From a plasmid, in sequence record NZ_CP118109.1: 64,000 bases of DNA. One strand, 5' to 3'. Position 1 is the first letter of the stretch. Every line of letters begins with the position of its first letter. A model generated the notes under the pieces. It ran no database searches, had not been told where the DNA came from, and saw only the letters and a list, made by a program, of their open reading frames with translations. The position numbers and the translations under genes were made by a program. Shown one piece after another: positions 1 through 62,895 of the stretch.

Positions 1-3000
1 TCCAGGATCGTTAGGCTCTACTCTGAATCCGGAATCTGACTTATCAAACTCTGGATTTTCAACACCTGCCAATCTACGGATAAGACCAAGCCCAGCATTA
101 GAACTCCCACCTTCATCATTGATCGCATCAACGATGCCGCTAACACCAACACGCTCTACACTAACACCGGCGCTTGTGCCGAATTTCTTATATGGGCTGC
201 TTAATCCTCCATCTTGACCATGAATCTTTTGTAACTCTCGGATCGCGGCCTCATGTCCTGTTGATTGGCTTTCGCTATCAAGGAAGAACTGCCTGTCGAA
301 CTCATAGACCTTTTTCCAATCAGAGTCCGTTCTCGCGCGATACAAGGTATTAATAAAATCCATTGCGCTGTCTATCTCTTCCGCACCGTGCTTAGATGAA
401 ATCAGCTTCTGCTCTAAATCCTGACCGAAGTCATAGATTGCTTGCCGTGCAGCTTCATTATGACCAAGGTAAGTCTTAGCTTGCTGACGCATAGCGTAGT
501 TAAGGTTGGACGCATGACCGATAACCATCTTACCTGATTTCGCCGTAAGCTCGGAACGATCATTCGCCGCAAATTGAGTAAACTCGTCTTCGCTGCTTAG
601 ATTCGGAAGTTCAAAACTTCGAGCCCCTTCATCGCCAGAGAATTTATTGATCAGCTTATCCATTCTTTCTGTACGCTGTTGTTGCTGCTCATTGTAGATC
701 CTGCCCCACTCAGCTTGAATCTTTTCGTCGCTCAGTGCTACGATATTATCGTAGTCACCGTCTGAGTCGGCTTTCATTAGGGATGCCGTCAATGCGGTTA
801 CGTGAAACTCTCCTGGTTTTATATTCTCGTCCATCATGAGTCGAGTGATCTGCATTGCATTATCATGGAACGTAGGGTAGCGAACATTCATTGTATAGAA
901 GGGCTTATCTGGATCGCTCAATTTTTCATAAATCCCCATCTTCTTTGCATCTTCTGGAGAGATGTATGTTCTCTCGCCATCCATAGCATCCGAAGTCCTT
1001 GGGTCGATCAGTTTAAAGATACCGGTACCGGACTCATTCATATTGGTTTTGAATACGCTGCTGTACGTCTGACCTTTAGAAGAAGTTACGTCTTTAACCA
1101 GTTGATTAACGTAGCCATCAATGGATCTTTGCAGGGATTCATGAGCTTCTACAGCTTCCTTGTAATTTGTAACCCCATCGTTCTTGCCGATCCTTGCAGC
1201 ACGCTCATAGATTTTGGCGATATTCTTTTGAAGCTCTCTGAAATGGATATCTCCGCCTTTTCCTTCTTGAGCTGTAAACGGAATAAAGATCTTATCTATG
1301 GCCTTCCTTCTTTCAGAGTCGGCGCCTCTTCCCACAACTTTGTCAACGTAGGTATATTCCAAATCACCAACCTTCGGGAGCTCTAACCAATAACCTTCTC
1401 CGTTCATCCCTTCTCCAAGCATTTGGGATACATGGGATCGATCAAATATGGTTCCCATAAGCGAATGCTCATTCTTGCCATACTTGCTGGTAGGAAGGTT
1501 TTTGAAATCATTAACAGACAGCGTAGGACCTTCAACGGACTCCGGATTTGCAATAGCTCCAAGGGCTGTTATCATATTTCTGGATTCCTGGGCACGATAG
1601 TTTGCTTGATTTGTCTCGAGCATCCGATTATACATGTGCTCTTTTGTAGCTTCCGCACCCATGTTGTCCAGAACTCCGTACTCACGATGTCCCCATGTAA
1701 CACCTTTTATGGCGTTTTCTCCACCTGCATAGATTGGATCGTCACCTCTAAACTCGATAACAACTCTACCTGTCTTATCAGTCATTCGAGAATAATTCTC
1801 CACTTGCGAAGCCCTAACTTCCTGAATCGCAGTCGTTAAGCCTGTGCTAGTCTTGTTATTCAAATTAATATCTGGGTGAGCGAAGAGCTGATCAAATGCG
1901 TCTGTTTTGATGCCCGCATTTGAATTAACTAGGAAACGATCCTCATTCCAGTTTAATCCGATGCCAGATTCCTCGACAGCTCTGATTGCGCGTTGCTGCT
2001 GCTCGGGAGACATCCCTTGAATATGATCAGCCAGTAGTTTGGCTTGACCTGTCATCATGGCTCCAAAGTCTTTATGCTTTCCTACATCAGGATTGTAGAT
2101 GGCTGTGATGTCATCTGATCCTGTAAGATATCTCATTAGCTCTCTTGAGACTGTAGTGTCAGTTGTTTTTTCTCCTTCAATCATGAATTTGAACGGCTGA
2201 TCTTCAGTATGAATCCCGATTCTGTTCTCATCATAATCCGTGAAAATGGTTCCTGTTTTATTTCCGTCATAGAATACTTTCTCTTCAACGCCAGACACCG
2301 TTCTTACTCCGAGCAGATCCCCTGGATTTACCGTTGTCCTTAGATGCCCATCTTCGTAGAAGGCACTATTCCAAGTAAAGGAGTCACCCTTGTCGATAAA
2401 GGTGTGATTATCTACTTTATAAGCATCCATGATTTCTTTAGTAAAGATAGCCTGCTGTTCGTACAATCTAGCTTTTGCCATGGAGTCAGATAGCTGTTTT
2501 TTAATACTCTGACTTACACTACTATCGGCAAGAAGCTGCTGAACACGATCGTCGAGCTGAGCCTGTGACATGTAGGCGACTTTCATATTAACGCCGCGCT
2601 GTGCAGGATTGGCTTTATTTCGCTCTTCCATAGCTGCCGTTGTAACAAGACTATCGAAGTATGAAGGCTTTATTCCGGCTTCAAGAAGCCCCTGCCTAGT
2701 CTTCTCATTAACGTTGTAGCTGTTGAACCACTGGACAGCATTATCACGACCGTTAAAGCTGTACGCACCAAGTGGATGATAATCCTGAATGTTCTTGAAA
2801 GACCATATTCCTCTGGAAACATTTTCGGATTTAACGCTGCCAGCATAAAGATTCAGTTCTTTGCTTGCCGCCCAATCATCAACTTCCTTAATCATTTCAT
2901 AAGCTTTGTTAGGAGAGAGATCATCAAAAGTTGCATGCCGTATATTGCTGCCACGCTGTAGGGCTCTTCCTAGCCAATCTTCCCGTATATCTCTATCAAG

Positions 3001-6000
3001 GTTTATGCGCCCCTGCTCATGCCATTCCTGAATCATAGCCGGAGCTATGCTTACGTGAGATTGCTTTAGGAAGTCAGAGTCATTGTTTGCCCAGTAATAT
3101 CCATCGTTTTGAGATAAAACATTTCGCTTGATTCCAGACAAGGTTTCGATCTCATTTCGCAAAGCCCTCTTGCTCATTAAGTCCGCTTCCTCATACTCAT
3201 CGTTCCTAATGGCATTTAAGATATTGCGCATTTCAAAGGAGTCCGTATATCCTCTAGCGATCATTTCCGCAGAAGAAATAGTTTTAGTATCTCCCCCTTC
3301 GTTGACTAGAAAAGATCGAGCGTTGAGTACTTGGTTTCCGATAACATGTGTTCCATTCTGTTGAATCAGCGGAACGATGATTTCGGATGCTTTGCTGTGC
3401 GACTCACCTGCAAGGAATTTCTCCATGACACTCGCACTGTTTTCACTCTTAAAGATCTGAATCCGCGCTTGAGTTCCTTCTTCATTCACCGAAAGATTGT
3501 ATTGAAGCCCATGCATCCCCATTTTGTCAGCAGTCGTTCTGTATGTTTCCAGAATGTGATTAACAGCCGAAGAGTTGTTGCTTCTCAATCCGGATGCATG
3601 TTCTACACCATCAAGCCGTGAAAAGATATCAACCGCACTTTCATCCATTTTTACCCGCTGATTAGCAATCCCTTGCTGTAAAATAAAGCCTTGAACTCCG
3701 TTAGTCTTCTTGATAGCAGACTGAATCATTTGCTGGTTAACAGCTTCGCTCACTTGCTGCATTTCAGCTCTGCGCCCTACGGATTTAATTTTAAGATTCT
3801 GCTGCATGATATCATGGTTGTCCATCAAGTCTTGAACCATCATACTGATGCTGTCATTAATGGCGAAGCTTCGATTAAATTCGTGGAACTTGTTTGCCAC
3901 TTTCCTATTGATTACGTTGCTCTCTTGAAGTGAAGTAATCAGGTTCCCGAGCCGTTCTTTCCTGAGATCAACGCCGTCATCCGGACTTCCGATCTGACGA
4001 TAAATTGCGTTGCGGGCAGTGGCCATCGTTTCGAAGTTTAGATATCTCTGCTCTTTTCTGGCAGTGCTTCGATCGAAATAGTGTATGCCTCTTTGCTCAA
4101 ATGGCTGTGTTGGGCGTTCAGTTGTATCTCCTCCAATTGTGCCATTCACTTCTTGATTGTAGAGCCTCCAGGCAATATCACGCTGCTGCCTAGTCCGTCT
4201 TGCTTCCATATCGCTCATATCTGGATTGATCGGAAATTGTTCTTCGATAGCTTCAATCGCTTTACTGTAATGAGGAAGCTCATCTACAAGTCGTGGCGCC
4301 ATTCGGAAGAATAGGCGCTGCTCTGTCTCGTTTAACCTACCTCCTGGTAAGCTATTGAAATTCATGCGCTCCATCATCTCTTCATGAGTGATTCGGTTAT
4401 CCATCAAACGTTTGCGAGCTTCTTCAGGATCGTCTTCAATGTGATCTATCACATTTTGGATATGTCCACCCTTTCCTTCTAAGCGCTCACGGTAAACTGC
4501 AGCGTTACTATACATACGCTTGGCTGCTTCAAAGCCTCGAGTGGTTGAGTTTCCACCAGCACCCGAAAGAGAGGTTAGGCTTTCATATCTTCGTCTGGCC
4601 AAGTCTCTTTCTTTCTGGATGCGAATTTCCCGCTGCATGTCTTTTGAAAGACCGTTCCAGTAATAGAATTTTTGCTGGACAAAATTTTCGATTTGCTGAA
4701 TTGCATCATCACCTTCACGAATGATGAATGAATTTGCCTTTGTATCTGGATTGTATAAATCCAGCGCTAATCGATTTGTCTTTAAAGTTCCATCCTCATT
4801 ATAGTCTGAGATATTTCGTAAACCCTGTACCTCGTAGAAAGACTTGCTGTTGACAGCCATACGATTAAAATCCGGTTCATCTGCTACAAACGATCCGTCT
4901 TCTGATCTTGCTTGAAAATCAAACTCCCCATTCCCGTAAGCCATTGCTCCGCCAATTGAAAATAGGCGATCTCCTTTTCTAAGCTGCCGATCACTCCAGC
5001 TTAACTGTGTAGGATGATAATTGAATCCAAAGGTGTCGATCCCAGGAAGTGATTTTGCATCCTCAATTGTTTGACTGACACCATTAAACATTCTGGAGAA
5101 AACTCCACCCAAGCCCTCTTCACCAATATCATGCGCCGCATTATGGGCCGCACCCTGATCAAAGCCAAAAGTTCTGCGCAGCTCCTGCAGCGTACCTAGA
5201 CCTCCCATTGCCGGTTTAGATTCGAATGATCTGCCAAAGCTTGTGTGCAGTCCCTTCATATTTGGATAAGATGATTGGATAACTCTCAAGAAGTCGATAT
5301 GCTTCTTCGGCCCCAAAATAGGCTCACCTATCTTTTTACTCCATTGCTCCAATGCTGGTATATCAAAATTAGTACCATTGTGAGATAAGAAGTACTTGTA
5401 GCGATTATCATGAAGGAATTTGTTATAGCGATTAATAACCCCCAGATGATCCTTTTCTCCATTCGCCTGCAGATCATTAAACCCTTGATTAATATGACGA
5501 AGATAAAATTCAAAATTCTGAATAAACTTCAAATCATCAATTGTTCCATCTGTGCGTAGAATCTGATTCACGACTTGGTTATGGCTGATATTTGTTACTC
5601 CTCGGTTTGTTTGCAGGATAGCACCTGAAACGCCGCCTTCGTTTGAGGTAGAGTAACGCATTAAGTCGATGACCGAACGCTGCTCAGAAGAGGTTAATTT
5701 CCGGAAGCTGTATGGATCTGTTTTGATCTTTTTTATCAGGCCTTTCATTTCTGTTGCTGACTTATTATCTAGGGCAAGCAGTGCATTAAATACACTCTTT
5801 GAACTAGCTTTATAGGTGCCACCTGCCTGTCTGCTAAAGCTTTGCGCTGCAATCTCAGTCACCCCGAATCCTGATCCATCGTTTTTAGATCGATCTCCCA
5901 TGGTCTCAATATCGAAAGCAACATAGGAATTGTGTCTACTGCTTGGATTCTTAGCCCTTTGGACGAACTCTTGGAATACATCAATGGCGCTTCTTGCCTG

Positions 6001-6246
6001 ATTATTGTTAGCTGTGTAAAGCTCAGGCATGACTTTGTAGCGTCCTTGTCCAATGATTGATTTTGCTGACAGCTGTGAATTATTAATCTTCTCCACCAGC
6101 TCGTTTACTTTCCCTTGTCGGCTATCTCTTTTTGCGTAATTTGGACTTGTAACAGGATTAAATGCGGTAACTGGCACCCAGGTTCCGCGGCTGTTTGGAG
6201 CAACCGCTTGGAACCCTTCTGCCATTAGAATTTCCTCAATCCCCAT
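1..6246 (-). CDS. Giant ORF (>=2082 aa, runs off window edge; start ATG 6246..6244 with RBS AAGGAAGTGAG). N-terminal DnaQ-like DEDDh 3'-5' exonuclease domain. C-terminal region has a beta-prime-like double-psi beta-barrel with RYPTFH and ADSDGDYD motifs: candidate virion-type single-chain two-barrel RNA polymerase
   Basis: Manually translated in frame over the whole 6.2 kb with no stops. Exo I AFDIETMG (~5896-5919), Exo II SHNGTNFDIPAL (~5362-5382), Exo III HNAAHD (5128-5145). RYPTFH at 865-882 and DSDGD at 754-768. The ~150 aa around the barrel align with the 51360..54992 protein (FKLIDP../FMVQDP.., RYPTFH/RNPAIA, ADSDGDY/ADNDGDE, IGHASNLNYAMRQQAKTY/IGQLTNIATRLADAVRKV). Confidence 0.6.
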   Translation of the reverse strand, partial: MGIEEILMAEGFQAVAPNSRGTWVPVTAFNPVTSPNYAKRDSRQGKVNELVEKINNSQLSAKSIIGQGRYKVMPELYTANNNQARSAIDVFQEFVQRAKNPSSRHNSYVAFDIETMGDRSKNDGSGFGVTEIAAQSFSRQAGGTYKASSKSVFNALLALDNKSATEMKGLIKKIKTDPYSFRKLTSSEQRSVIDLMRYSTSNEGGVSGAILQTNRGVTNISHNQVVNQILRTDGTIDDLKFIQNFEFYLRHINQGFNDLQANGEKDHLGVINRYNKFLHDNRYKYFLSHNGTNFDIPALEQWSKKIGEPILGPKKHIDFLRVIQSSYPNMKGLHTSFGRSFESKPAMGGLGTLQELRRTFGFDQGAAHNAAHDIGEEGLGGVFSRMFNGVSQTIEDAKSLPGIDTFGFNYHPTQLSWSDRQLRKGDRLFSIGGAMAYGNGEFDFQARSEDGSFVADEPDFNRMAVNSKSFYEVQGLRNISDYNEDGTLKTNRLALDLYNPDTKANSFIIREGDDAIQQIENFVQQKFYYWNGLSKDMQREIRIQKERDLARRRYESLTSLSGAGGNSTTRGFEAAKRMYSNAAVYRERLEGKGGHIQNVIDHIEDDPEEARKRLMDNRITHEEMMERMNFNSLPGGRLNETEQRLFFRMAPRLVDELPHYSKAIEAIEEQFPINPDMSDMEARRTRQQRDIAWRLYNQEVNGTIGGDTTERPTQPFEQRGIHYFDRSTARKEQRYLNFETMATARNAIYRQIGSPDDGVDLRKERLGNLITSLQESNVINRKVANKFHEFNRSFAINDSISMMVQDLMDNHDIMQQNLKIKSVGRRAEMQQVSEAVNQQMIQSAIKKTNGVQGFILQQGIANQRVKMDESAVDIFSRLDGVEHASGLRSNNSSAVNHILETYRTTADKMGMHGLQYNLSVNEEGTQARIQIFKSENSASVMEKFLAGESHSKASEIIVPLIQQNGTHVIGNQVLNARSFLVNEGGDTKTISSAEMIARGYTDSFEMRNILNAIRNDEYEEADLMSKRALRNEIETLSGIKRNVLSQNDGYYWANNDSDFLKQSHVSIAPAMIQEWHEQGRINLDRDIREDWLGRALQRGSNIRHATFDDLSPNKAYEMIKEVDDWAASKELNLYAGSVKSENVSRGIWSFKNIQDYHPLGAYSFNGRDNAVQWFNSYNVNEKTRQGLLEAGIKPSYFDSLVTTAAMEERNKANPAQRGVNMKVAYMSQAQLDDRVQQLLADSSVSQSIKKQLSDSMAKARLYEQQAIFTKEIMDAYKVDNHTFIDKGDSFTWNSAFYEDGHLRTTVNPGDLLGVRTVSGVEEKVFYDGNKTGTIFTDYDENRIGIHTEDQPFKFMIEGEKTTDTTVSRELMRYLTGSDDITAIYNPDVGKHKDFGAMMTGQAKLLADHIQGMSPEQQQRAIRAVEESGIGLNWNEDRFLVNSNAGIKTDAFDQLFAHPDINLNNKTSTGLTTAIQEVRASQVENYSRMTDKTGRVVIEFRGDDPIYAGGENAIKGVTWGHREYGVLDNMGAEATKEHMYNRMLETNQANYRAQESRNMITALGAIANPESVEGPTLSVNDFKNLPTSKYGKNEHSLMGTIFDRSHVSQMLGEGMNGEGYWLELPKVGDLEYTYVDKVVGRGADSERRKAIDKIFIPFTAQEGKGGDIHFRELQKNIAKIYERAARIGKNDGVTNYKEAVEAHESLQRSIDGYVNQLVKDVTSSKGQTYSSVFKTNMNESGTGIFKLIDPRTSDAMDGERTYISPEDAKKMGIYEKLSDPDKPFYTMNVRYPTFHDNAMQITRLMMDENIKPGEFHVTALTASLMKADSDGDYDNIVALSDEKIQAEWGRIYNEQQQQRTERMDKLINKFSGDEGARSFELPNLSSEDEFTQFAANDRSELTAKSGKMVIGHASNLNYAMRQQAKTYLGHNEAARQAIYDFGQDLEQKLISSKHGAEEIDSAMDFINTLYRARTDSDWKKVYEFDRQFFLDSESQSTGHEAAIRELQKIHGQDGGLSSPYKKFGTSAGVSVERVGVSGIVDAINDEGGSSNAGLGLIRRLAGVENPEFDKSDSGFRVEPNDPG

Positions 6247-15694: not shown

Positions 15695-15722
15695 TGGTTC
15701 GGCATGTTTTACTATACCGAAC
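15695..15722 (-). other. Stem-loop GGTTCGG-N14-CCGAACC between the sheath stop and the tube start (no clear T-run)
   Basis: 7-bp perfect stem. Confidence 0.35.
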
Positions 15723-15729
15723 CTGATGA

Positions 15730-18501: not shown

Positions 18502-18503
18502 TT

Positions 18504-46213: not shown

Positions 46214-46742
46214 TCTGATGTATTCTCTCGTAAACGATCATAACATATTTAATAGATACCAAGCAACCCTTAATTTGGACAACAAAAAAAGCAGCAGGTG
46301 TGCCGCCCGCCGCTTTTCGAACAAGTGAAGCTGTATGAGGTTGGAGATCTCACGTATCCTTCGCTGAGTTATATTTTAAGCCATTTGGCAAAAAATATCA
46401 AGAACGTATGTTCTCTTTTTGTGATTTCTTTTCACAGAAAAGGCTTCAAGACCGTTGCCAACGTTTCAACATATGATTTCAACACTGGAGGTGTAATTTT
46501 AACAGATAGAGGGTGGCAGTCCTATGACCTGTTGGCTATTTACTTGAAGCCCTTTTCTCTAAAAAGAGTATTGGCATACTCCGGATTATTTTTTTGTAGG
46601 AGGTGTCGTGAGCCCATGCTAAGCATCACGATTAATCCGGAGCAAACCATACTGTGTCCAGTCAGCTATTTTGAGGAGAGCTGCTGCAGTCATCTGCCAA
46701 GTCGGGTCTGTGTTCTCGACTTGAGTTTATTCTATACGATAA

Positions 46743-46756
46743 TGTAATGCATTACA
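46743..46756. promoter_or_regulatory. TGTAATGCATTACA perfect palindrome copy at the edge of a 640-bp ORF-free region
   Basis: Same motif family. Confidence 0.45.
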
Positions 46757-46854
46757 ATATGATTATATATTATTTCACGCGTTTTCTCTCTTTTTTTCTT
46801 TGACGCTTTTGATTTTGCTCTATGATGTACGTTTCCTCTTGATGTGTCGCTTTC

Positions 46855-50287: not shown

Positions 50288-50365
50288 ATTTTCTATACTC
50301 AAATTGTAATGCGTTACATTTTATTTGACAACAATTAAATTTTCTATAGGGGGCAATTTTCTATA
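50288..50365 (+). repeat. Three direct copies of ATTTTCTATA (50288, 50339, 50356) in the divergent control region
   Basis: Exact 10-mer repeats. Confidence 0.5.
50305..50318. promoter_or_regulatory. TGTAATGCGTTACA motif copy in the divergent control region
   Basis: 45 nt upstream of the minus gene start at 50260; followed on the plus strand by TTTTATTTGACA. Confidence 0.5.
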
Positions 50366-50992: not shown

Positions 50993-51343
50993 TAGGTCAT
51001 GGACATGGCATGGTATAGATGCATAGGGAGTACACGATAACGGTGGATGATCCCCTATGTAGGCTATACCCTCTACCCTACCTTATATGGTGGCATGGGT
51101 GGCAGTACTATGGTTAGCCATATTGTGCCTATGTATATGGGCATATGGGTGTGTAGGTGCACTCTATCATATACAGCCCCTGTGTAGTACGCATGGTCCG
51201 GGTCAGCCGCCCCCATGTGTAGTATGCAGGGGTCTTTTTATTTATTTACACATAGCTCCCTGTATAGGTGCCCTATATAGACCCCCCTCTATATGGACCC
51301 CCCTATATAGGGAGCTGTATGTAAGTACAGCACATTTAACCCC
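50993..51343 (+). repeat. 350-bp ORF-free GC-rich array of about 10 degenerate CCC(C)TRTRTAGG-like words immediately upstream of the polymerase gene
   Basis: cccctatgtagg, ccttatatggtgg, cctatgtatatggg, cccctgtgtag, ccccatgtgtag, ccctgtatagg, ccctatatag, cccctctatatgg, cccctatataggg; T-run at ~51230. Confidence 0.5.
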
Positions 51344-51359: not shown

Positions 51360-54300
51360 ATGTCAACTGATTCAAAGAAAGCTATGTCGTCCGTCCCTAT
51401 GTCCAACAAACAAACTAAAACAAACAAAAAGGAGCAATCTACAATGACTAACAACAAACAAGCACAAATCAACAAGCAACTGGCTGAGGTAAACCGTCTT
51501 TTCAACAAAGCTATCAAAGGTAACAAACTAGAGGCGCAAATGTCTGATTACAAGTCTACTTCTGTAGTATTGGATGCTATTGCTGAGTTCCCAGGATTGG
51601 GCGTTAAAACAAAGAATTATGAGGCTATCACAGCTGCTATCGCTAGTGGTAAGGATATCCGTACTGTTATGGAGAACCCGGAGCTTACTGGTGTTCCTAA
51701 GAATCAATATCGCTTCTTCCGTGCATTCATGGAAGAGAAAGGTGCAGAGATTCCTGCTATGGTGATTGCACCTACTCGTAAGCGTGTACGTACTGTATCT
51801 GTCGATCTATTGAAACATTCCCGCAACGAAGCTGGTGAAGTGGTGCTCAACGCGGAAGTCAGCTATCAATCTCAGTCTCAGCTTGCTGATGCATTCGGTA
51901 AATTGGTTCCAGCTACAGATAGCAATGATCTACACTTGGATGCGACTCACATTGTCTATATCGATTTGAATATCGCTGATCAAGAGAATCAAGAAATGAA
52001 AGACTTGCAAATCGAGATCGTCCGTAATGGATTCTATTACACAGTGGAAGGCGTTACACGCAAAGCTAACTTCTTTATTCAGACAGCAAATCAAACTCGT
52101 CAATTGCAAGGTATCTATATTGCAGAGGACTTCATGACGATTCCTCAAGCATTCCGCAAGCTTGGTCATAGCTTCCTGTCTTATTGCAAACTGGATAAGG
52201 CTACTGGTGTCTATACACTGGATATCACGAAGTATCTGAAACGTCCAGGTCTGTCTGGTACAAGCTCTGTGCCATCTAAGGTAGTAACCTTCCCTAATGC
52301 TCATATCGACAAGCTGCCTAACATGAGAACAGGAGAATACTTGGTTAACTCTGATCGTCACTCTATGGCAGTGATTGATGATCGCTTTGCTAAGATCAAG
52401 AATGGTAAGTTCAAAGCATTCTATAACAACCGTGTAGTCACTGTATCTGCGGTTGATGGTACATTCACAGCTACATGGAAAGAAGGACGCATGACTAAAG
52501 AAGAAGTCCTGCCTATGAACTATCTGAAGCTTGGCGTAGGCGATGGCTTGGTTCTAGCTTCCGAGTCGATCTACTGGGCATTGAAGGCTGAGTTTGGCAA
52601 TGATTCCGATGCATGGCAAGTACGTATCACCCCATTCGTTAAAGGCTTGATGGTATTCGTGCCAGGCTTGCGTCAATACTATGATGCAGATATCGTTGCA
52701 TTCAAGTCTGCTGTGAAAGGTGACTTCCGTTTGCTTGCTGATAGCGAAGGTAAGATTGACTTTGGTATTGAGCTGCGTATTGCACGCTTTGCTAAGCGTC
52801 CTGCTATGAAGTCTGAGTATGTAGAGCTTCCATATCAGTTTGCACATGTATCCAGCATTACAGCAGAGCAAATGATTGATGTTGCTCAACCACGCCTGGA
52901 TGAAGCTAAGAGTGTACTTACTAATCCTGCACTGATTCAAAAGTATGCAGGGGTTGCTCACTTGGAGAAGCTGAACAAGCTGACTCTTGCACAAGCTGAG
53001 TTTCTACGTGATCGCTCCCTTGTTTCTGTATTTGCTAACTTCATGCACTATGCTCCATTCACATTCCAAGATGCTTACATGCAAACAAGAGCACTGAGAC
53101 TGATGGGGCAGCAAGTAGACAAATGGGTTGCTGGTACGATTCCTGTAGAAGGCGAGTATCGCTTCATGGTTCAAGATCCATATGCATTGCTTCAAGCTGT
53201 GGAAGATGAGAATGGAGATATGATTGTCCCTGATCACGTTGGTCTTAAGCCACACCAAACATTCATGACAGCACGCGATAACCAACACTTTGTAGAGGGC
53301 CCTGTTGCATCCTTCCGTAACCCTGCTATTGCTAAAGGTGAAGGACGTATCTTGAATGGTGTAGCTCCACAAAACTATGTGACTGCTTCTGCTAAAGGCG
53401 CATTCAACTCTGTATGTGTAATGAGCTGCCATGACTTGGATACATTCGCTGAAGGCGGAGCTGATAACGATGGTGATGAAACATTCATTACACAAGTACG
53501 TGCTATCGTTAATGGCATCATGGGTAAAGATGGTCAATCTAAGTTCTTGGCTATGCTTGACCTGCATGTAGATAAAGATGGTGAGTGGTCTTCTGGATGC
53601 CCGTTCCCTATGGAATCTGATGAGAAGCTTGCATTTGATGCTCCTTGCGTATCACACGATGGACAATTCAAAGTGAAGTTCACTGCCGATCAATATAATG
53701 ATGCATTCATTCAAGCTGTACATGAGCTAAGCAAAGAGTATGTCATTCGTACACTGACTCCTAACAAGATCGGTCAACTGACTAACATTGCTACTCGTCT
53801 TGCTGATGCTGTACGTAAAGTAGGATATATGTATGCAGAGAATACCAATGAGTTTGGTCAAAAGACTGAACGTTCAGATGCTGAGAAACAAGAGCTGATT
53901 AGAGAGATCGCTCGTATGGAAGATATGATCGACTTGATTCGTCTGGCTCAAGGATGGGAGATTGACCGTGCTAAGCATGGTGGTGCATATGAGGAAGCAT
54001 TGGCTGCTGAATTGGAGTTCATCAACAATCCTCCAAGATATGCAGGATTCCAAGAGTCACCTAAATCCAAGCGTCAATGGATCAAGCAAGCATGGCTCGC
54101 ACATCACAAAGGTGCTGAGGGTGGAGTAGACACAGGTTCTGTAATGTCCCGTGTGCATAACCACATGAAAGCATTCGTACAAGAGAATGTAATCGACAAG
54201 TCCGAAGAGATCATGAACGATGTAGAGAACAACAACCTGATTCATATCCTGAGAGCTGAGTATGTTATTGATCCAGTTATCTATGACAGAATCGCTAACT

Positions 54301-54992
54301 CTATTCGTTCCATTCGCTCTATCTATACAAACGACATCAAGAACGCTCGTCAGAAGCATGAAGAGTTCATCAAGCTTGCTGAGCTGAAATATGGTGAGGC
54401 TGATCCTGCACTGGCGATGGCTAAAGAGAAGATCGAGCGTATCTATAGAGATGATTGCGATGCGATCACCTATAAGAGTCAAATGACACTTGGCGCTTTG
54501 GAGTTCTCTTTCTCTGCGACTGATATCGGCTATGTTGCATACATGGTGACATACACTGAGAGAGGTCAAGATAACAATCGTTCGATCAGCTTCCCTTGGG
54601 TCGTGGCTAAGAAGCAATTCTTGGAGCTGTGTGCTGCTATCTCTAATCGTGAGATTGTGAAGAACCCTTATGTTGTCCCTGCATCTGATATCAAGGCAAA
54701 CTTCCGTATTGGGGCTGATTCAACTGGTCGTGTGTTTGATGGAGAGAGAATGGCACCTGTCATTGCGAATGCAGGTATGGTAACAGTGGAGTATATGTAT
54801 AACGAAGTTACTGAAAGCTACATGTATGTTGTTTATGTTCCAGTAGGCAGCAGAAATGTATATGTAGGCGACTTCTACCAAGATCAAGTTGGATTCTTGA
54901 CTGGTGCAACACGTTTCAATCTTACAGTGTCCAATGCTGAAGCTAAAGGCAGAACTATGAGTCTGACGATCTCCAGCATCGAACGCATGTAA
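51360..54992 (+). CDS. 1210-aa single-chain two-barrel (YonO/RDR/crAss gp66-like) RNA polymerase candidate
   Basis: Beta-prime DPBB signature VASFRNPAIAKGEGRIL ... GGADNDGDETF (compare NRAPTLHRLG ... NADFDGDQM); RBS AAGGAGG 9 nt upstream of ATG 51360 (alternative ATG 51444 also has an RBS); the track N-terminal extension from 51087 translates a repeat array and is rejected. Confidence 0.65.
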   Translation: MSTDSKKAMSSVPMSNKQTKTNKKEQSTMTNNKQAQINKQLAEVNRLFNKAIKGNKLEAQMSDYKSTSVVLDAIAEFPGLGVKTKNYEAITAAIASGKDIRTVMENPELTGVPKNQYRFFRAFMEEKGAEIPAMVIAPTRKRVRTVSVDLLKHSRNEAGEVVLNAEVSYQSQSQLADAFGKLVPATDSNDLHLDATHIVYIDLNIADQENQEMKDLQIEIVRNGFYYTVEGVTRKANFFIQTANQTRQLQGIYIAEDFMTIPQAFRKLGHSFLSYCKLDKATGVYTLDITKYLKRPGLSGTSSVPSKVVTFPNAHIDKLPNMRTGEYLVNSDRHSMAVIDDRFAKIKNGKFKAFYNNRVVTVSAVDGTFTATWKEGRMTKEEVLPMNYLKLGVGDGLVLASESIYWALKAEFGNDSDAWQVRITPFVKGLMVFVPGLRQYYDADIVAFKSAVKGDFRLLADSEGKIDFGIELRIARFAKRPAMKSEYVELPYQFAHVSSITAEQMIDVAQPRLDEAKSVLTNPALIQKYAGVAHLEKLNKLTLAQAEFLRDRSLVSVFANFMHYAPFTFQDAYMQTRALRLMGQQVDKWVAGTIPVEGEYRFMVQDPYALLQAVEDENGDMIVPDHVGLKPHQTFMTARDNQHFVEGPVASFRNPAIAKGEGRILNGVAPQNYVTASAKGAFNSVCVMSCHDLDTFAEGGADNDGDETFITQVRAIVNGIMGKDGQSKFLAMLDLHVDKDGEWSSGCPFPMESDEKLAFDAPCVSHDGQFKVKFTADQYNDAFIQAVHELSKEYVIRTLTPNKIGQLTNIATRLADAVRKVGYMYAENTNEFGQKTERSDAEKQELIREIARMEDMIDLIRLAQGWEIDRAKHGGAYEEALAAELEFINNPPRYAGFQESPKSKRQWIKQAWLAHHKGAEGGVDTGSVMSRVHNHMKAFVQENVIDKSEEIMNDVENNNLIHILRAEYVIDPVIYDRIANSIRSIRSIYTNDIKNARQKHEEFIKLAELKYGEADPALAMAKEKIERIYRDDCDAITYKSQMTLGALEFSFSATDIGYVAYMVTYTERGQDNNRSISFPWVVAKKQFLELCAAISNREIVKNPYVVPASDIKANFRIGADSTGRVFDGERMAPVIANAGMVTVEYMYNEVTESYMYVVYVPVGSRNVYVGDFYQDQVGFLTGATRFNLTVSNAEAKGRTMSLTISSIERM

Positions 54993-55629
54993 TAGGCGAG
55001 CCACCTATATCTGTAGTCGGCATGTTCCTAGGCATGTCGGCTACTCCTTTATTATAGCACACCCTTCGGGTAGGTGCTAACGCCATCGACAGCTCCACGC
55101 TTCCACCCTAAGACGCCCTGCCCTTTGCAGATGACGAATCATACTACTTGTAGGATGCTTTCGTTAGACGCGAAGGCAGGATGCTTATATGGGACATGCA
55201 TGGACGGCAACTTACGGCAATACAGCTAGACAGCTGAATCATATGAATATAACGTCCGGTGGGGGAGGAAGCTGCTTCGCAACGTGGACGCTGATCTATA
55301 TGAGCAAGCTCTTTCCCTATGTTGTCGATGGCTGTTATCACCTATCCGAATCGTGTGTAATCTCAAGTGTGACGCTACTTTATGTACGATGACTTATATC
55401 ACAGAGAGCTACATCCTGCTGTATATCATACTTCGGATGCTATATTCCCTATTTCGTATATCATATGCTACTGAAAGTGGTGAACCCTCATCCGAAAATT
55501 TTCTTCATCCTGCGTATGATTATCTTATGTGCTCTATAGTGTATGACGATGTAATAGATAGTGCAGACGATGGTCGCTAACGCTCCTGTGGCATTGTGAA
55601 TGTTTAACTTGAACGAGGAGGTTATCTAT
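54993..55629 (+). other. 637-bp apparently non-coding spacer downstream of the polymerase gene, with related word composition (cacctatatctgtag, cttatatggg), a GGCATGT/GTCGGC duplicated segment and a small ACCC-TTC-GGGT hairpin
   Basis: No ORF with a credible RBS or codon usage; composition unlike neighbouring coding DNA. Confidence 0.4.
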
Positions 55630-55968
55630 ATGAGTAACAAATTGCTAACTGAAGGACGTAGCTTATTCGACCATAGTTTATCTAAGGAGGAAGTACGTAA
55701 TCGCAACCTAGACGTATTTGCCTTTATGATGGATATGCTTAGACTATATACAGAAAGAAGTATCTCTGGTAGTCAGCTCTGCATGCTACATGCTAGTTAC
55801 CATAGTGTGAATATGAAGTATACTATGGGCAAGAAAGAGTTCCAGTATCGTCTTGTCGTGTTGATCAATGCTGGCTTTATAGATAGAGAGACTATAGAGA
55901 AAGATGATGTGCTCTCTCCTACTGAGCTTGGTATGAATAGATATGATGCTGTATGTACTGTAGCTTAA
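55630..55968 (+). CDS. 112-aa small protein, possible winged-helix regulator (paralog 1)
   Basis: RBS GAGGAGG; C-terminal SPTELGMNRYD shared with the next ORF. Confidence 0.45.
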   Translation: MSNKLLTEGRSLFDHSLSKEEVRNRNLDVFAFMMDMLRLYTERSISGSQLCMLHASYHSVNMKYTMGKKEFQYRLVVLINAGFIDRETIEKDDVLSPTELGMNRYDAVCTVA

Positions 55969-55988
55969 CTATATAGGAGGTTAATCAT

Positions 55989-56279
55989 ATGAATCGCTAT
56001 GATGAAGACTATAGTAGAATGGAGATACGCCTTCGCAATATGGAGGCGTTCTCTGCTGTAAAGAAGATGATTGAGCATGGAGATGTAGATGAAGCACCGT
56101 TGAATACTATAGTGTCTATGTATCCTTTGTTTGAGATGGATATAGATATGCCTCTTCATGAGCTTGAGTATCGTATTCGTCTTCTGCATAATGCTGATTA
56201 TGTTTATATACGTAATGGAGCTTATGGTTCTGAGATGGTATCCATAACTGAGTTAGGATTAAGGAGATATACTTCTTAG
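55989..56279 (+). CDS. 96-aa small protein (paralog 2, ITELGLRRYTS)
   Basis: RBS AGGAGG. Confidence 0.45.
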   Translation: MNRYDEDYSRMEIRLRNMEAFSAVKKMIEHGDVDEAPLNTIVSMYPLFEMDIDMPLHELEYRIRLLHNADYVYIRNGAYGSEMVSITELGLRRYTS

Positions 56280-56363
56280 GTATCTATAGTCTTATCTTCT
56301 ATGTGTTCTTATACTGTATATTGTTTATATAGTGAGCTATAGTATTAATGGTATGCGTCTTGG

Positions 56364-56400
56364 ATTTTTTTCTTTTTGCCGATCCTTGCGGAACGGCACT
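56364..56400 (+). promoter_or_regulatory. Conserved element TTTTTTCTTTTTGCCGATCCTTGCGGAACGGCAC (T-run followed by a 7-bp-stem/3-nt-loop hairpin), copy 1, 40 nt upstream of the 56440 start
   Basis: Near-identical second copy at 58556. Confidence 0.45.
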
Positions 56401-56439
56401 AAAACCTTTTTAAAACCCTATACATTGGAGTGGTATTCT

Positions 56440-56649
56440 ATGAAGTTTGATGTCAAATTTAAAGAACGCATTACAGGTGTTCCATTACAGCTAATTGACG
56501 CTTTTATGATATCTTCCCGCTCTGAACCTTGTATGATCTGCAAAGAACCAACTGTTTTCATTGATTACTGTTCCGAAGGACGGCTTTGTTCTGATGAATG
56601 CGATTCTGTATTCTATTCTAAGGTTGAAGAATCTGGGGGTGTCTTATGA
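56440..56649 (+). CDS. 69-aa Cys-rich small protein (CMICKEP...CSEGRLCSDEC)
   Basis: RBS GGAGTGG; zinc-ribbon-like Cys spacing. Confidence 0.45.
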   Translation: MKFDVKFKERITGVPLQLIDAFMISSRSEPCMICKEPTVFIDYCSEGRLCSDECDSVFYSKVEESGGVL

Positions 56650-56825
56650 GTCCTATACTCTGGACTTCGATAGTTATCTCTTTAGCATCTATTGTCATTA
56701 ATGTATTTAACATTCTTGCCATACGCCGATCACATAAGCGTATGGATGAAGCTTACAACAGAGAGGGTCAAGCTCTTGATAATCTAAGTAGAGAGCTTGA
56801 TAAGCTTATTAAGAAAGGAAGATAG
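56646..56825 (+). CDS. 59-aa small membrane protein (ATGA-coupled)
   Basis: MSPILWTSIVISLASIVINVFNILAIRRSHKR..; below the track cutoff; verified stop at 56823-56825. Confidence 0.45.
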   Translation: MSPILWTSIVISLASIVINVFNILAIRRSHKRMDEAYNREGQALDNLSRELDKLIKKGR

Positions 56826-56826
56826 T

Positions 56827-57024
56827 ATGAGTCAAGAGATTACCCATGAGTATGTATCAGCTGAGATAACTAGGCTGATTGGTGAATATGATTTCCCGCT
56901 GGTTGCCCTGCAAGATGTAAAGAATAGGCTTAGCGATAGTGATGATCCACACTATGCAGCACAGCAGCTACGTTATCTTAATAATCTCATTAATGCTGGT
57001 CATGCTATAAGAAAGCATCAATAG
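56827..57024 (+). CDS. 65-aa hypothetical protein
   Basis: ATG 2 nt after the previous stop. Confidence 0.45.
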   Translation: MSQEITHEYVSAEITRLIGEYDFPLVALQDVKNRLSDSDDPHYAAQQLRYLNNLINAGHAIRKHQ

Positions 57025-57035
57025 GAGGTATTGTT

Positions 57036-57296
57036 ATGGGTGCTAAGCCTATAAAGCGCCATACTCTTACTAAAGACAACGTTAAACACTTCTCGCGTAT
57101 TCAGAGGACTGGCAATGTTTTGCCTCAGCCGGCTCGTATTGTTGTCGATAAAGAATACTGGGAAGATGTTGGTGGCTGGCGAGGATGGGAAACCACTCCT
57201 ATATATGATAAAGTGTTTCATGACTGGGAATATGCATACGCTGTCTATGATGAGATCCTGCGCAGAGCGGATCCTGGTAGTGTAAAAGAGCGTTAA
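57036..57296 (+). CDS. 86-aa hypothetical protein
   Basis: RBS AGGAGG. Confidence 0.45.
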   Translation: MGAKPIKRHTLTKDNVKHFSRIQRTGNVLPQPARIVVDKEYWEDVGGWRGWETTPIYDKVFHDWEYAYAVYDEILRRADPGSVKER

Positions 57297-57309
57297 TGAG
57301 GTGTATATA

Positions 57310-57549
57310 ATGGAGCTTATGTCTCCTTACTTTGAACGAACTATTATTACTGCAGATCGACTGATCCGTGGCCAATTTTATTCTTTCTATTACCAAGAAC
57401 AATATTACATTGCTGTTTTCCTTAGCTCTAGACATGAAAATCAAGTTTTAACCTTTAACGCATACACTATCGATAACAAGTATTGCAGAATATCGATGAT
57501 GTTTGCGCCAGAAGAGATAGATCGATTAAGTATTTACTATAGGGAGTGA
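57310..57549 (+). CDS. 79-aa MELM-family protein
   Basis: MELMSPYFER; RBS TGAGGTG. Confidence 0.5.
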   Translation: MELMSPYFERTIITADRLIRGQFYSFYYQEQYYIAVFLSSRHENQVLTFNAYTIDNKYCRISMMFAPEEIDRLSIYYRE

Positions 57550-57555
57550 TATATC

Positions 57556-57792
57556 ATGGAGCTTGTTACTCCTTACCTTAGAGCTATGTTTGAATATGCT
57601 ATAGGTGATGAATATGTATTTGTCACCTTAACTAATGATTATTATCTTGGTATGATCGCGGCTGCCACCGAAGAAGGTGTCACTCTTACATTTGCCCATG
57701 TCTCCTATGGTGGTCGTGATCACATGCTTCATGAAGTTAATTCTTGCTCTATTCCACTATCTAACATAAAGGAGTACTGGGAATGGAATTAA
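57556..57792 (+). CDS. 78-aa MELM-family protein
   Basis: MELVTPYLRA; RBS GGGAGTGA. Confidence 0.5.
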   Translation: MELVTPYLRAMFEYAIGDEYVFVTLTNDYYLGMIAAATEEGVTLTFAHVSYGGRDHMLHEVNSCSIPLSNIKEYWEWN

Positions 57793-58091
57793 TGAATGCT
57801 TATTTAGAGAATACCGGTCCTACCTTTTCTCCGCCAATAATGAATCGCATTACATTTCAGGATGCCGACTTCTATGTAGGTGATTTTGTACGTGTGATAC
57901 ATTATCATGACATAGATTTAGAAAACAAGACTTTATCCAGGTCCTATACAACTGGAGTTATTCAAGAGATCAACGAAGATTTACTTTCTAAATACGTTGT
58001 GATTCACGATGAAAGTACTTCTAATCAACACTATATTCGAGAGTTTGACATAGTAGGTATTATGTATCCCCCATTTTGGAGTGGACCATGA
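57783..58091 (+). CDS. 102-aa MELM-family protein
   Basis: MELMNAYLEN; start overlaps the previous gene. Confidence 0.5.
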   Translation: MELMNAYLENTGPTFSPPIMNRITFQDADFYVGDFVRVIHYHDIDLENKTLSRSYTTGVIQEINEDLLSKYVVIHDESTSNQHYIREFDIVGIMYPPFWSGP

Positions 58092-58318
58092 TGGAGCTAA
58101 TGTCTGCCTATAAAGAGAATACTGATAAGTATTTTAATGGTGTAGTCGATGCCTATAACTATTGCTATGGTTATGTCTCCCTCTACCCTAGTGTGTATAC
58201 TGATGATCCTCAGTATAAGCTTGGTTATGAGTATGGTGAGAAGCTATATCATAGCGATAAAGAGTTAGGTATTCTATATAGTGATGATCGCTTATTTGAA
58301 TTACATGGAGGCCTATAA
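58091..58318 (+). CDS. 75-aa MELM-family protein
   Basis: MELMSAYKEN; TGATG-coupled. Confidence 0.5.
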   Translation: MELMSAYKENTDKYFNGVVDAYNYCYGYVSLYPSVYTDDPQYKLGYEYGEKLYHSDKELGILYSDDRLFELHGGL

Positions 58319-58557
58319 TGATCAATCAAACTAAATTCACAGTTAATGATGTTCCGCTTAAGACTAAGAAGGAGGCTGTACGTGCTTTATGTGCCACAGC
58401 CAACTTCAATTGTTTGCATATAGAAGAATTATGGTGTTACAAAGAAGTTTGTGAATTATTTAGCATTACTCCTGATGATTATTGGAATGACGAAGCAGAG
58501 CTTGATGAAGAACATCTTATGCATGCTGGTAATGATAATTGGAAGCCTCGTATTTAA
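58318..58557 (+). CDS. 79-aa hypothetical protein
   Basis: TAATG-coupled. Confidence 0.45.
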   Translation: MINQTKFTVNDVPLKTKKEAVRALCATANFNCLHIEELWCYKEVCELFSITPDDYWNDEAELDEEHLMHAGNDNWKPRI

Positions 58558-58593
58558 TTTTTTTCTTTTGCCGATCCTTCGGAACGGCGCTAC
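58556..58593 (+). promoter_or_regulatory. Conserved element TTTTTTCTTTTGCCGATCCTTCGGAACGGCGC, copy 2, 28 nt upstream of the 58620 start
   Basis: Same ~34-nt element; T-run precedes rather than follows the hairpin, so it is not a canonical terminator. Confidence 0.45.
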
Positions 58594-58619
58594 ATACTAC
58601 ATTTTAGGAGGATACATAC

Positions 58620-58853
58620 ATGCCTGAGAAAACATACATTCCATGTGTATTAAAAAACAATAGAGATGGTCGCATTATCAACCAGTCTTTTACACCACGC
58701 CAGCTGTTAACAGATTTTTATGACGAGAACGAGCTTGCTGAAGCTATGGTTGCATCTGCTTGCAATTGTCAGCCTATTGGTGAGACTTATGATACAGACT
58801 GCAACTGTTTTGAGGAATGGGAGAATTACAGTATTGTTATAGGAATTGAGTAA
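58620..58853 (+). CDS. 77-aa Cys-containing small protein
   Basis: RBS TAGGAGG. Confidence 0.45.
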   Translation: MPEKTYIPCVLKNNRDGRIINQSFTPRQLLTDFYDENELAEAMVASACNCQPIGETYDTDCNCFEEWENYSIVIGIE

Positions 58854-58862
58854 CTTATCGCT

Positions 58863-58895
58863 CTCGGGAGCCTAACGGCTCCGGGGGCTTTTTGA
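58863..58895 (+). terminator. Terminator GGAGCC-TAAC-GGCTCC followed by GGGGGCTTTTT
   Basis: Hairpin plus T5. Confidence 0.6.
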
Positions 58896-58921
58896 ATTTA
58901 TACATATGGAGGTTATTTATA

Positions 58922-59365
58922 ATGCGTATACATAACGAAAACTTTGAACATGTGATTTCTATGATGTTTTATGGCTACAAAGCATCTTCACACAATCCTG
59001 AGTGCTTCAGCTCTTCTGATCTTCGTATTGAGATGTGGGCAGAAGCATGCTGTAATGACATCATCAACAAGATGCGTGATCAAGGCTATGATCCTGCTCT
59101 TATCGTACCGGTTATCAGCAAGCCTGAAATTGATTTGAAATACTATCCAGATGCTAATCCTGCTTTAAAACAAGAGCTTGATGATGAGTTTGGCGGCTTT
59201 GTGGTTAATAACGATTTATACATGCTTGGTCTTCGCGCTTGGTATGCTGATGGTCATGAATATATCTCTCAGTTTGGCACACCATGCGATGATGAGAATG
59301 ACGGTCCATTTGGTGGCGCCTTTGCTTCTGAAGGCGATTACTACAACTATGTCGGTGCCTTGTAG
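58922..59365 (+). CDS. 147-aa hypothetical protein
   Basis: RBS TGGAGG; followed by a terminator. Confidence 0.45.
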   Translation: MRIHNENFEHVISMMFYGYKASSHNPECFSSSDLRIEMWAEACCNDIINKMRDQGYDPALIVPVISKPEIDLKYYPDANPALKQELDDEFGGFVVNNDLYMLGLRAWYADGHEYISQFGTPCDDENDGPFGGAFASEGDYYNYVGAL

Positions 59366-59392
59366 GAGCCTAACGGCTCCGAGGTCTTTATG
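59365..59392 (+). terminator. Second copy of the GGAGCC-TAAC-GGCTCC hairpin, overlapping the stop of the 58922 gene
   Basis: Identical hairpin, weaker T tract. Confidence 0.45.
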
Positions 59393-59418
59393 ATATTATT
59401 ATGTTATCCGATATATAA

Positions 59419-61828: not shown

Positions 61829-61838
61829 TTTTACCTTC

Positions 61839-61868
61839 GGCTGCCACTTAGGCAGTCTTTTTTTATTT
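61839..61868 (+). terminator. Terminator GCTGCC-ACTTA-GGCAGT followed by CTTTTTTTATTT
   Basis: Hairpin plus T7. Confidence 0.6.
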
Positions 61869-61891
61869 CTAATTCAAAGGAGATTTTCTAC

Positions 61892-62125
61892 ATGCAACCA
61901 CCTATTCTACACCCAGTAAACAAAGTTCTCATGATTCCAGGACGACTATACAACATCAAGGACACCAAAGAAAGAAACATTCAGGCGTCTTTTTCTAAAC
62001 GAGAAGGTGAAAACTTTCACTTTGATTATGCTATCTCTTTCGATTTAGCTTCTGGGACTACTCTTCTCATTGATCTTCTTCTTCATGAGGATGAAATTAT
62101 CTCTTGTGAGCAATATCATTTCTAG
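61892..62125 (+). CDS. 77-aa hypothetical protein
   Basis: RBS AAAGGAG. Confidence 0.45.
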   Translation: MQPPILHPVNKVLMIPGRLYNIKDTKERNIQASFSKREGENFHFDYAISFDLASGTTLLIDLLLHEDEIISCEQYHF

Positions 62126-62543: not shown

Positions 62544-62762
62544 TTGGAGGTTATAATCATAGATATAAACCAGACGTATAATACAATTGCTGTTATCATA
62601 TTCGAGCTGTTTCTTTTCCTATGCTTTATCATCGCTATTCCCGCTCTCAGAAATCCTAAAATCCCGCTAAAGCGCAAGTTTGAGGTTATAGGAGCAATTA
62701 TACTTATGATGTTCTTTATTTATTCGGCTTATCTAATGGAGCTATCTGAATCCGCTCAATAG
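62544..62762 (+). CDS. 72-aa putative membrane protein (doubtful; no ATG start)
   Basis: Track ORF starts at TTG; hydrophobic. Confidence 0.25.
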   Translation: MEVIIIDINQTYNTIAVIIFELFLFLCFIIAIPALRNPKIPLKRKFEVIGAIILMMFFIYSAYLMELSESAQ

Positions 62763-62895
62763 TATTTCATATGATTTATAAGATATTTCATATGATTTAA
62801 GTCTTATATCATATGCGATAACAGTTATATCGTATGATATATTATATAATTCCTATTTCATATGATATATTAAATACTTATACGATGCGATTAGG
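62763..62895 (+). repeat. Iteron-like array: six ~16-bp copies of TAT(T/A)TC(A/G)TATG(A/C)(T/G)ATA with a CATATG/CGTATG core, ~20-bp phasing
   Basis: tatttcatatgattta x2 exact, tatatcatatgcgata, tatatcgtatgatata, tatttcatatgatata, cttatacgatgcgatt. Confidence 0.55.

Follow-up and report, generated by a model that had tools for sequence, protein, structure and literature searches.

Two early genes in the window, the 64,000-nt stretch of plasmid record NZ_CP118109.1 that was analysed here, are preceded by the same short element, a T-tract followed by a small hairpin, and the question that this locus raises is what such an element does. An initial annotation had likened it to the DNA-hairpin promoters that are used by the virion polymerase of phage N4. 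The source of the window is an uncultured phage of ~190 kb, and comparison with its relatives indicates that the element is real, that it is selected for its sequence as well as for its structure and that it is confined to one sub-clade. We consider it to be a compact, sense-oriented signal of early transcription units, and its most likely role, to which we give a probability of roughly 0.35, is that of a start signal for a phage two-barrel RNA polymerase. Very little is known of the promoters that the single-chain two-barrel RNA polymerases of phages use: among YonO, crAss gp66 and P23-45, motifs have been mapped for P23-45 only, the YonO promoter being undetermined in the 2017 paper (PMC5467207) and the early transcripts attributed to crAss gp66 showing no common motif in a 2020 preprint (bioRxiv 10.1101/2020.03.07.982082). 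An element located beside such polymerase genes offers a short, conserved and structurally constrained template for in vitro tests.

The window carries two nearly identical copies of the element

Both copies lie on the + strand, copy 1 at 56365-56401 and copy 2 at 58558-58592, and they share 32 identical bases, their only differences being two 1-nt indels (an extra T in the tract and an extra G in the loop of copy 1). Each copy starts with a T-tract, TTTTTTTCTTTTT in copy 1 (56365..56377) and TTTTTTTCTTTT in copy 2 (58558..58569), and continues with a hairpin made of the same two arms, GCCGATCC and GGAACGGC, which enclose the 4-nt loop TTGC in copy 1 (56378..56397) and the 3-nt loop TTC in copy 2 (58570..58588). 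The 3' flank that follows is ACTA in copy 1 (56398..56401) and GCTA in copy 2 (58589..58592); GCTA is conserved across alignments, the flank reads R-C-K-A in all copies, and it would be a possible start site if the element is a promoter. The stem of both copies has 8 positions, arranged as 4 bp, an A.A mismatch and 3 bp. The single mismatch of the initial annotation was thus confirmed, while its 7-bp stem has to be extended to 8 positions and its 3-nt loop applies to copy 2 but not to copy 1.

The repetition reported earlier also proved genuine, since 0.00 matches to the 20-nt hairpin pattern are expected in shuffled sequence, and the exact 12-nt T-tract is found at just these two sites in the 64 kb. 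A covariance model built from five copies (copies 1 and 2, and three copies from relatives that are described below) matched only copies 1 and 2 in the window at E < 1e-7. The hairpins are more stable than shuffles whether they are folded as DNA or as RNA (z -2.3 to -4.5), with RNA hairpin energies of -8 to -12 kcal/mol. Copy 1 lies 85 nt past the stop codon of gene 55989-56279, and the tract of copy 2 starts on the base right after the TAA stop (58555-58557) of gene 58318-58557. Counted from the 3' end of the hairpin, the next ATG is 42 nt away for copy 1 (ATG at 56440) and 31 nt away for copy 2 (ATG at 58620), and these distances replace the 28-40 nt given previously.

Two familiar bacterial signals were considered and rejected. 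Like an intrinsic terminator, the element combines a GC-rich hairpin with a T-run, and in two distant relatives (L128 and L129) genuine terminators have this T5CT4 tract as their tail. In the element, however, the two parts stand in the opposite order, with the T-run ahead of the hairpin on the + strand (the coding strand) and an A-run behind it on the - strand. A scan that finds six nearby terminators reports neither copy, in agreement with the earlier view that the element is not a canonical intrinsic terminator. It is not a sigma-70/sigma-A promoter either, as no scan match was obtained at either copy and no -10 or -35 element is present; since the tract has no A, it cannot provide a sigma-70 -10 element. 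A weak TTGTTT-16-TATTAA was seen upstream of copy 1 by manual reading. Rfam gave 0 matches in the whole window at gathering thresholds and none overlapping the elements at E <= 1.

Related phages conserve the tract and covary in the stem

Absence from related genomes was named in the initial annotation as something that would speak against its reading, but two of them carry the element, with compensatory changes in the stem. These are L001, an IMG/VR contig whose polymerase is 80% identical to that of the window, and L002, an NCBI metagenome contig whose polymerase is 46% identical. Three full copies were found there, at L001 15176 (TTTTTTTCTTTT-GCCAATCC-TTT-GGATCGGC-GCTA), at L001 17976 (TCTTTTTCTTTT-GTCTACCC-TTC-GGGCAGAC-GCGA) and at L002 7228 (CTCTTTTCTTTT-GCCATCCC-TGC-GGGACGGC-GCTA), and these were compared with copies 1 and 2. 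L001 also has, at 16036, an intergenic site in the same orientation that consists of a tract without hairpin (ATTTTTTCTTTTG-TCTA), which suggests that the tract is the core of the element, and L002 has, at 6305, a looser T-tract followed by a hairpin with two G.U pairs.

All five full copies keep TTTTCTTTT followed by G, a string that is unchanged among genomes whose polymerases are only 46-80% identical, and they also keep stem pairs 1 and 3, CC/GG at the top of the stem and, within the 3' flank, the C and the A. Compensatory double changes are found at 4 of the 8 stem pairs, and the proportion of stem cells that pair reaches 87.5% on the plus strand and 95% on the minus strand, compared with 17-52% in slid-register controls. 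The invariant tract and the compensatory stem changes together indicate that sequence and structure are both under selection. At E < 1e-7, the covariance model matched the five full copies and nothing else.

The conservation has its 5' edge at the T-tract, since copy 2 and the L001 17976 copy begin 0 and 9 nt after unrelated stops and share no sequence upstream. This edge indicates that the whole signal is ~40 nt long, which is the size of a phage-polymerase promoter. The tract begins 0-14 nt past a stop codon at three of six sites, and the three orthologous copies are located ~80 nt past one. In the window, L001 and L002 the element is intergenic and in sense orientation, at a distance of 31 to ~160 nt from the next start codon, and the genes that come after orthologous copies are not the same in the window and in L001.

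Beyond these genomes, exact and degenerate scans of IMG/VR returned the L001 contig only, a scan of metagenomes returned the L002 contig besides a flood of an unrelated human-gut coding repeat (GCAGTTGCAGTCTTTTCTTTTGCCTTGCC...), and a scan of genomes returned scattered chance matches only. Scans of metagenomes and genomes that were guided by the polymerase protein alignment found nothing, and GCTAA by itself is uninformative because it is too common within coding DNA. The human-gut sequence matched by the degenerate pattern, GCAGTTGCAGTCTTTTCTTTTGCCTTGCCTTCGGCGAGACCTTC (loci L008-L126, e.g. L019, L028 and L038), has nothing to do with the element and is probably a coding sequence repeated in tandem.

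The mismatches and wobble pairs bear on which strand folds. In three stems, an A.C mismatch on the plus strand corresponds to a G.T wobble on the minus strand, and in L001 and L002 the minus-strand DNA hairpin is 1.4-2.1 kcal/mol more stable than the plus-strand one. Read 5'-3', the minus-strand loops are GAA (copy 2 and L001 17976), GCA (L002), AAA (L001 15176) and GCAA (copy 1), and all of them are closed by C:G. A ninth pair, between the last T of the tract and the base after the stem, is T-A in copy 1 and T.G in the other four and makes a wobble on the plus strand only, as do the two G.U pairs of the L002 6305 hairpin. Since these wobble pairs are opposed, they do not tell whether the hairpin forms in the DNA of the template strand or in RNA.

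Two candidate phage polymerases are encoded in the window

The gene at 51360..54992 (+), whose open frame reaches up to 51087, encodes a 1210-aa protein with the motif GGADNDGDE. Since three of its six closest homologues match the Pfam family RdRP (PF05183, best E 2e-17), which more distant homologues likewise carry, and since its profile gives a weak match to plant RDR2, we read this protein, with its GGADNDGDE motif, as an RdRP/QDE-1-like two-barrel RNA polymerase. This polymerase, which heads the early plus-strand cluster, may be the enzyme that uses the element.

A second candidate is found at the other end of the window, where a giant open reading frame (ORF) of at least 2082 aa (1..6246, - strand), cut by the window edge, combines a DEDD-exonuclease-like N-terminal region with the motif RYPTFH...DSDGD. 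A full HMMER search placed it in a family of proteins of 2250-2700 aa (45 clusters at 50% identity), in which the R-x-P...D-x-D-G-D residues are invariant and whose profile gives weak matches both to the active-site region of Pol V / Rpo1N (E 0.015) and to family-B DNA polymerases in their exonuclease domain (E 0.002). A word-indexed search with the C-terminal 800 aa found nothing, and BLASTP and hhalign detected no significant homology between the giant ORF and the RdRP-like polymerase. Judging by these motifs and by the location of the gene where the structural cluster ends, we take the giant protein to be a candidate virion polymerase, possibly fused to an exonuclease domain. No T7/N4-type polymerase was detected among the giant ORFs or the 1301-aa ORF with PHROGs, Pfam and PDB, within the 64 kb of the ~190 kb genome that the window covers. 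The initial annotation, which counted on an injected giant polymerase, was right that the window holds phage polymerase candidates, but these are of the two-barrel type (RdRP-like and beta'-like) and not of the N4/T7 type.

A possible start signal for a two-barrel polymerase

In the reading that we favour, the enzyme using the element would be either the RdRP-like polymerase (51360-54992) or, if it is injected, the giant DSDGD protein. The invariant pyrimidine tract TTTTCTTTT-G would act as the sequence-specific recognition element, and RNA synthesis would begin at or just past the tract. The hairpin would then either cap the 5' end of the transcript or be extruded as a template-strand DNA hairpin that aids a polymerase preferring single-stranded DNA (ssDNA). 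What speaks for such a start signal is the conservation of the tract, the selection on the hairpin, the sense intergenic position, the lack of host-type promoter and terminator features and the presence of the polymerase genes. Copy 2 also forms a compact unit with the one gene behind it and with the strong terminator (58860-58893) that closes this unit.

Two characterised enzymes provide points of comparison. The two-barrel virion polymerase of P23-45 uses a promoter with an 11-nt T/C-rich non-template motif, cTTATTCCTTTA, in which +1 is the last A and which is often found just after terminator hairpins (PMC10770324). In L128 and L129, too, the T5CT4 tract comes after terminator hairpins, and there it is extended by CCCCGC, a conserved motif. 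The two-barrel polymerase gp66 of a crAss-like phage transcribes ssDNA far better than duplex DNA (bioRxiv 10.1101/2020.03.07.982082), which makes a hairpin-assisted start mechanistically plausible. It is this precedent and this preference, taken together with a sense-oriented, sequence-specific signal of ~40 nt that has the tract as its conserved 5' edge, that led us to rank a start signal first. The likeness to P23-45 consists of a short T/C-rich non-template motif, a two-barrel phage polymerase and a location in intergenic early DNA, often after terminator hairpins in the case of P23-45. The two systems differ in that the consensus is another one, that no hairpin is found downstream of the P23-45 motif, that the polymerases have no detected similarity and that the element is known here from sequence alone.

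Several observations weigh against a start signal. The tract is T/C-rich but its sequence differs from the P23-45 motif and does not follow the TTATTCCTTTA consensus, and neither candidate polymerase has detectable sequence similarity to P23-45 gp64 or gp96. No terminator is found ahead of copy 1 or copy 2, so both could lie within a longer transcript, and the wobble evidence is contradictory, the A.C mismatches favouring the minus strand and the T.G and G.U pairs favouring the plus strand or RNA. Only two full copies are present in 64 kb, and the full element was not found in the distant relatives L128-L130 or in the Virgibacillus contig L180. Canonical terminators of L128 and L129 have the identical T5CT4 tract as their tail, where it is followed by the CCCCGC motif or by a CCC-TTC-GGG mini-hairpin, and this terminator-tail role may account for part of the conservation of the tract.

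If the element does direct initiation, it would establish how an RdRP/QDE-1-like DNA-dependent enzyme recognises its promoters and would show whether ssDNA-preferring polymerases use hairpins as N4 does. If it is instead an antitermination or a processing site, it would mark the punctuation of early transcripts in a large uncultured clade of Bacillota phages.

Alternative roles of the element

Processive antitermination by a nut/put-like RNA is an unlikely role, although the layout of the terminators favours it. In that case, the U/C tract (boxA-like) and the hairpin (boxB-like) would load a factor onto RNA polymerase, or would modify the polymerase directly, so that it passes later terminators. 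The sites nutL and nutR of phage lambda are placed one near the start of a block and one internally after a gene, and their two boxB hairpins differ in the loop. The element likewise has two copies per region, one near the block start and one internal after a stop codon, and the two hairpins of the window differ only in the loop. It also shares with lambda nut and HK022 put sites a linear U/C-rich box joined to a small hairpin, the number of two sites per genome and a position upstream of terminators that are to be read through.

The layout of the early region fits such a role. The block at 55612-58853 holds both copies and has no canonical terminator, and strong terminators follow at 58860, 59875, 60680, 61839, 62153 and 63258. 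The first of this series (58860..58893, + strand), a GC-rich hairpin followed by TTTTT, is found after the single gene that comes behind copy 2. L001 is arranged alike, with a block at 14790-20357 that contains three tract sites and no canonical terminator, before terminators resume at 20357 and 23270. Since some terminator-to-gene gaps (e.g. 61829-61895) are too short for promoters, terminator read-through seems to be required, and the U.G pairs of the plus strand suit an RNA structure. However, the tract does not match the boxA consensus on inspection (the boxA literature gave no Firmicute consensus for comparison), the hairpin lacks the 5-bp stem and the GNRA-like pentaloop of a boxB and no arginine-rich N-like protein is evident beside either copy, and in these three respects the element departs from lambda nut. 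Antitermination is also at odds with the different genes that follow orthologous copies in the window and in L001, with the lack of an Rfam match and with the absence of a hairpin at L001 16036.

We also doubt that the element is an RNA processing or stabilising site, which the initial annotation had named among its alternatives. At such a site an endonuclease, for instance RNase Y or RNase E, would cleave polycistronic early mRNA within its single-stranded U-tract, and the hairpin, placed at the new 5' end, would guard the downstream segment against 5'-dependent decay. The intergenic sense position, the variable distance to the start codon, the absence of an adjoining terminator or host-type promoter and the stability of the RNA hairpin are all as expected for such a site, but neither the invariant C at a fixed tract position nor the GCTA after the stem would be needed. 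The loops UUC, UUGC, UUU and UGC are not of the stable RNA types, and three of the stems have A.C mismatches on the RNA strand.

Assembly breaks in a sequencing run that contains the same phage also bear on this role. Among the Logan contigs of SRR23401452, L133 ends at 56369, L132 spans 56374-58563 and L005 starts at 58567, and the breaks therefore fall inside both T-tracts. At both copies the contigs stop after the first 5-6 T's and resume 3-4 nt before the hairpin; they cross a T7 run and six terminators unbroken, and the other contig ends are featureless. If the library is RNA, contigs broken at both copies have the look of cleaved transcripts, but L133 spans divergent genes with the spacer between them, which is more like DNA than RNA. 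The breaks could come from tract-length heterogeneity, from a sequence-specific sequencing error beside the inverted repeat, from a strand interruption or, with an RNA library, from transcript ends.

It is distinctly unlikely that an N4-like DNA-hairpin promoter has evolved independently for an injected two-barrel polymerase (beta'- or RdRP-like) of a ~200 kb Bacillota phage. Such a promoter would be recognised through its template-strand GNA-loop hairpin, whose extrusion would be aided by the adjoining pure A/T tract, while the G.T/A.C asymmetry would keep only the template-strand hairpin stable. Early promoters of N4 have a stem of 5-7 bp, a 3-nt loop with a 3' A, a central purine and a 5' G, a G:C closing pair, -8G, an A4 spacer and +1C (PMC4496689). 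For a promoter of the N4 type, transcripts are expected to begin ~11 nt past the loop centre and the hairpin to be extruded when the DNA is supercoiled. The element resembles them in forming small hairpins upstream of early genes, in its few copies per genome, in the presence of an injected-polymerase candidate and in its template-strand loops, which in copy 2, L001 17976 and L002 are purine triloops closed by G:C, with A at the 3' and G at the 5' end; the complete loop rule (3'-A, purine, G-5', G:C closing) holds in two of the five copies. In contrast, the N4 enzyme is T7-like whereas the candidates here are two-barrel, the stem of 8 positions with one mismatch is longer than that of N4, and copy 1 has a loop of 4 nt, unlike copy 2 and the three copies of the relatives, whose loops have 3 nt. 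Template position -8 is C and the stem is then followed by 3'-CGAT-5' (copy 2) or 3'-TGAT-5' (copy 1) instead of AAAA-C, and N4 promoters contain nothing that corresponds to the invariant T-tract upstream. The proposal of an N4-like hairpin promoter is partly supported: loop type, closing pair, low copy number and the polymerase candidate agree with it, but enzyme class, stem length, -8G, A4, +1C, the 4-nt loop of copy 1 and the T-tract do not. The element is N4-like at most by convergence and is not a member of the N4 promoter family.

More improbable still is a hairpin-independent stop or attenuation signal for a phage polymerase, in which the long T-tract would destabilise the elongation complex and the hairpin would belong to the next unit. 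Oligo-T stops RNA polymerase III, and TTTTTNT stops poxvirus early transcription. In line with such a signal, half of the six tracts closely follow a stop codon (0-14 nt), the identical T5CT4 tract serves as canonical terminator tail in L128 and L129, the SRR23401452 contigs end within the first T's and YonO-type enzymes have no flap or lid elements coupling RNA hairpins to pausing or termination (PMC5467207). However, the selected hairpin and the GCTA flank would be left unexplained, the three orthologous copies lie far (~80 nt) from the preceding stop codon, and an efficient stop would leave the downstream genes in need of another promoter, of which none is visible.

A DNA-level role, as a duplex operator for a dimeric regulator or as a replication or nicking site using a DNA hairpin, is the least probable: the inverted repeat sits in regulatory DNA, the minus-strand GNA-type loops are stable as DNA and the assembly breaks at both sites could mean nicks or tract-length heterogeneity, but the arms covary instead of being fixed in sequence (two L001 stems differ at 3-4 positions per arm), which argues against a protein reading duplex bases, and in three genomes the element is strictly in sense orientation and intergenic, which suits transcription better than replication.

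Genomic setting and other conserved motifs

The late genes of the window form a minus-strand cluster that includes the terminase (39822-41582), the portal (36101-38350) and a tail sheath of 923 aa (15730-18501) and that ends in two giant ORFs. One of these, of 1957 aa (6259-12132, - strand), is located downstream of the sheath and tube genes, had no match in PHROGs, Pfam or PDB and may encode a tape-measure-like protein; the other is the DSDGD ORF, which runs off the window at base 1. The plus-strand cluster extends from ~50.5 kb and consists of the polymerase ORF of 1210-1301 aa (51087/51360-54992) and then many small genes. No DNA similarity to 50,697 phage records was found, and a protein-level search gave only distant matches to RdRP of Enterocloster phages. 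Database contigs with the same or related proteins have sizes of 190-213 kb and include a syntenic one of 198 kb in a Virgibacillus salexigens assembly (GCA_014905475.1), which, together with strong Shine-Dalgarno sites, indicates a Bacillota host.

A weak relative of the element (17.3 bits, E 0.18) is located at 55044..55083 (+), where the T-rich terminator tail of the polymerase gene is followed by a hairpin, GCACACCC-UUCG-GGGUAGGUGC, and by UAAC; this hairpin downstream of the terminator (55056-55077) is kept in every relative. A conserved non-coding stretch of ~550 nt comes after the polymerase gene in the window (55045-55600, + strand), in L001 (14125-14790), in L002 (5790-6360) and in L128-L130. 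It opens with a cUUCGg-type hairpin, GCACACCCUUCGGGUAGGUGC, of which L130 has three tandem versions. This stretch had no match in Rfam; it may act as a long leader or form a structured RNA.

Other repeated sequences were noticed in the early region. Two consecutive genes are each followed by the hairpin GGAGCCTAACGGCTCC, which at 58867-58901 belongs to the strong terminator and at 59365-59399 is without a good T-run. The motif GGTCGCTAACGCTCC recurs throughout the clade, 30-60 nt ahead of several early start codons (window 55572-55590; L001 14679 and 18053; L002 7365; L128 17650 and 20080; L129 14250 and 15890). Clusters of CTATAGG / CTATATAG are present at 51255-51325, 50340-50360, 56284-56345, 55972 and 57538 in the window, and also in L001 and L002; one of them is a large inverted repeat before the polymerase gene, another is located upstream of copy 1, and the form CTATAGGAGG stands directly before start codons. 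These clusters resemble the motif of the second, non-virion polymerase of P23-45, which differs from that of the virion enzyme and reads TCTAGGGGC / CTATAGGC (PMC10770324), and they could represent another class of promoter or a site for a regulator.

Throughout the clade, the palindrome TGTAAYGCRTTACA also recurs in intergenic DNA that is AT-rich (window 46745-46760 and 50300-50320; L001 6515; L128 8185; L129 5600 and 19310; L130 19020), which in the window falls within a conserved non-coding region of ~550 nt (46270-46850) and is probably an operator for a dimeric regulator. At least four iterated copies of ATTTCATATGAT(T/A)TA, spaced by 21-28 nt, are found at 62759-62869 in an intergenic region of 550 nt and look like iterons or an operator array. 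Finally, an Alp7A/ParM-like actin (PF17989, PF21522) is encoded near the terminase by all relatives (L128 2264-3451, L129 3773-4927, L130 2520-3725 and L180 1174-2337), and its probable counterpart in the window is the gene at 44973-46166 (-); its presence hints at plasmid-like segregation or at a cytoskeletal role in infection.

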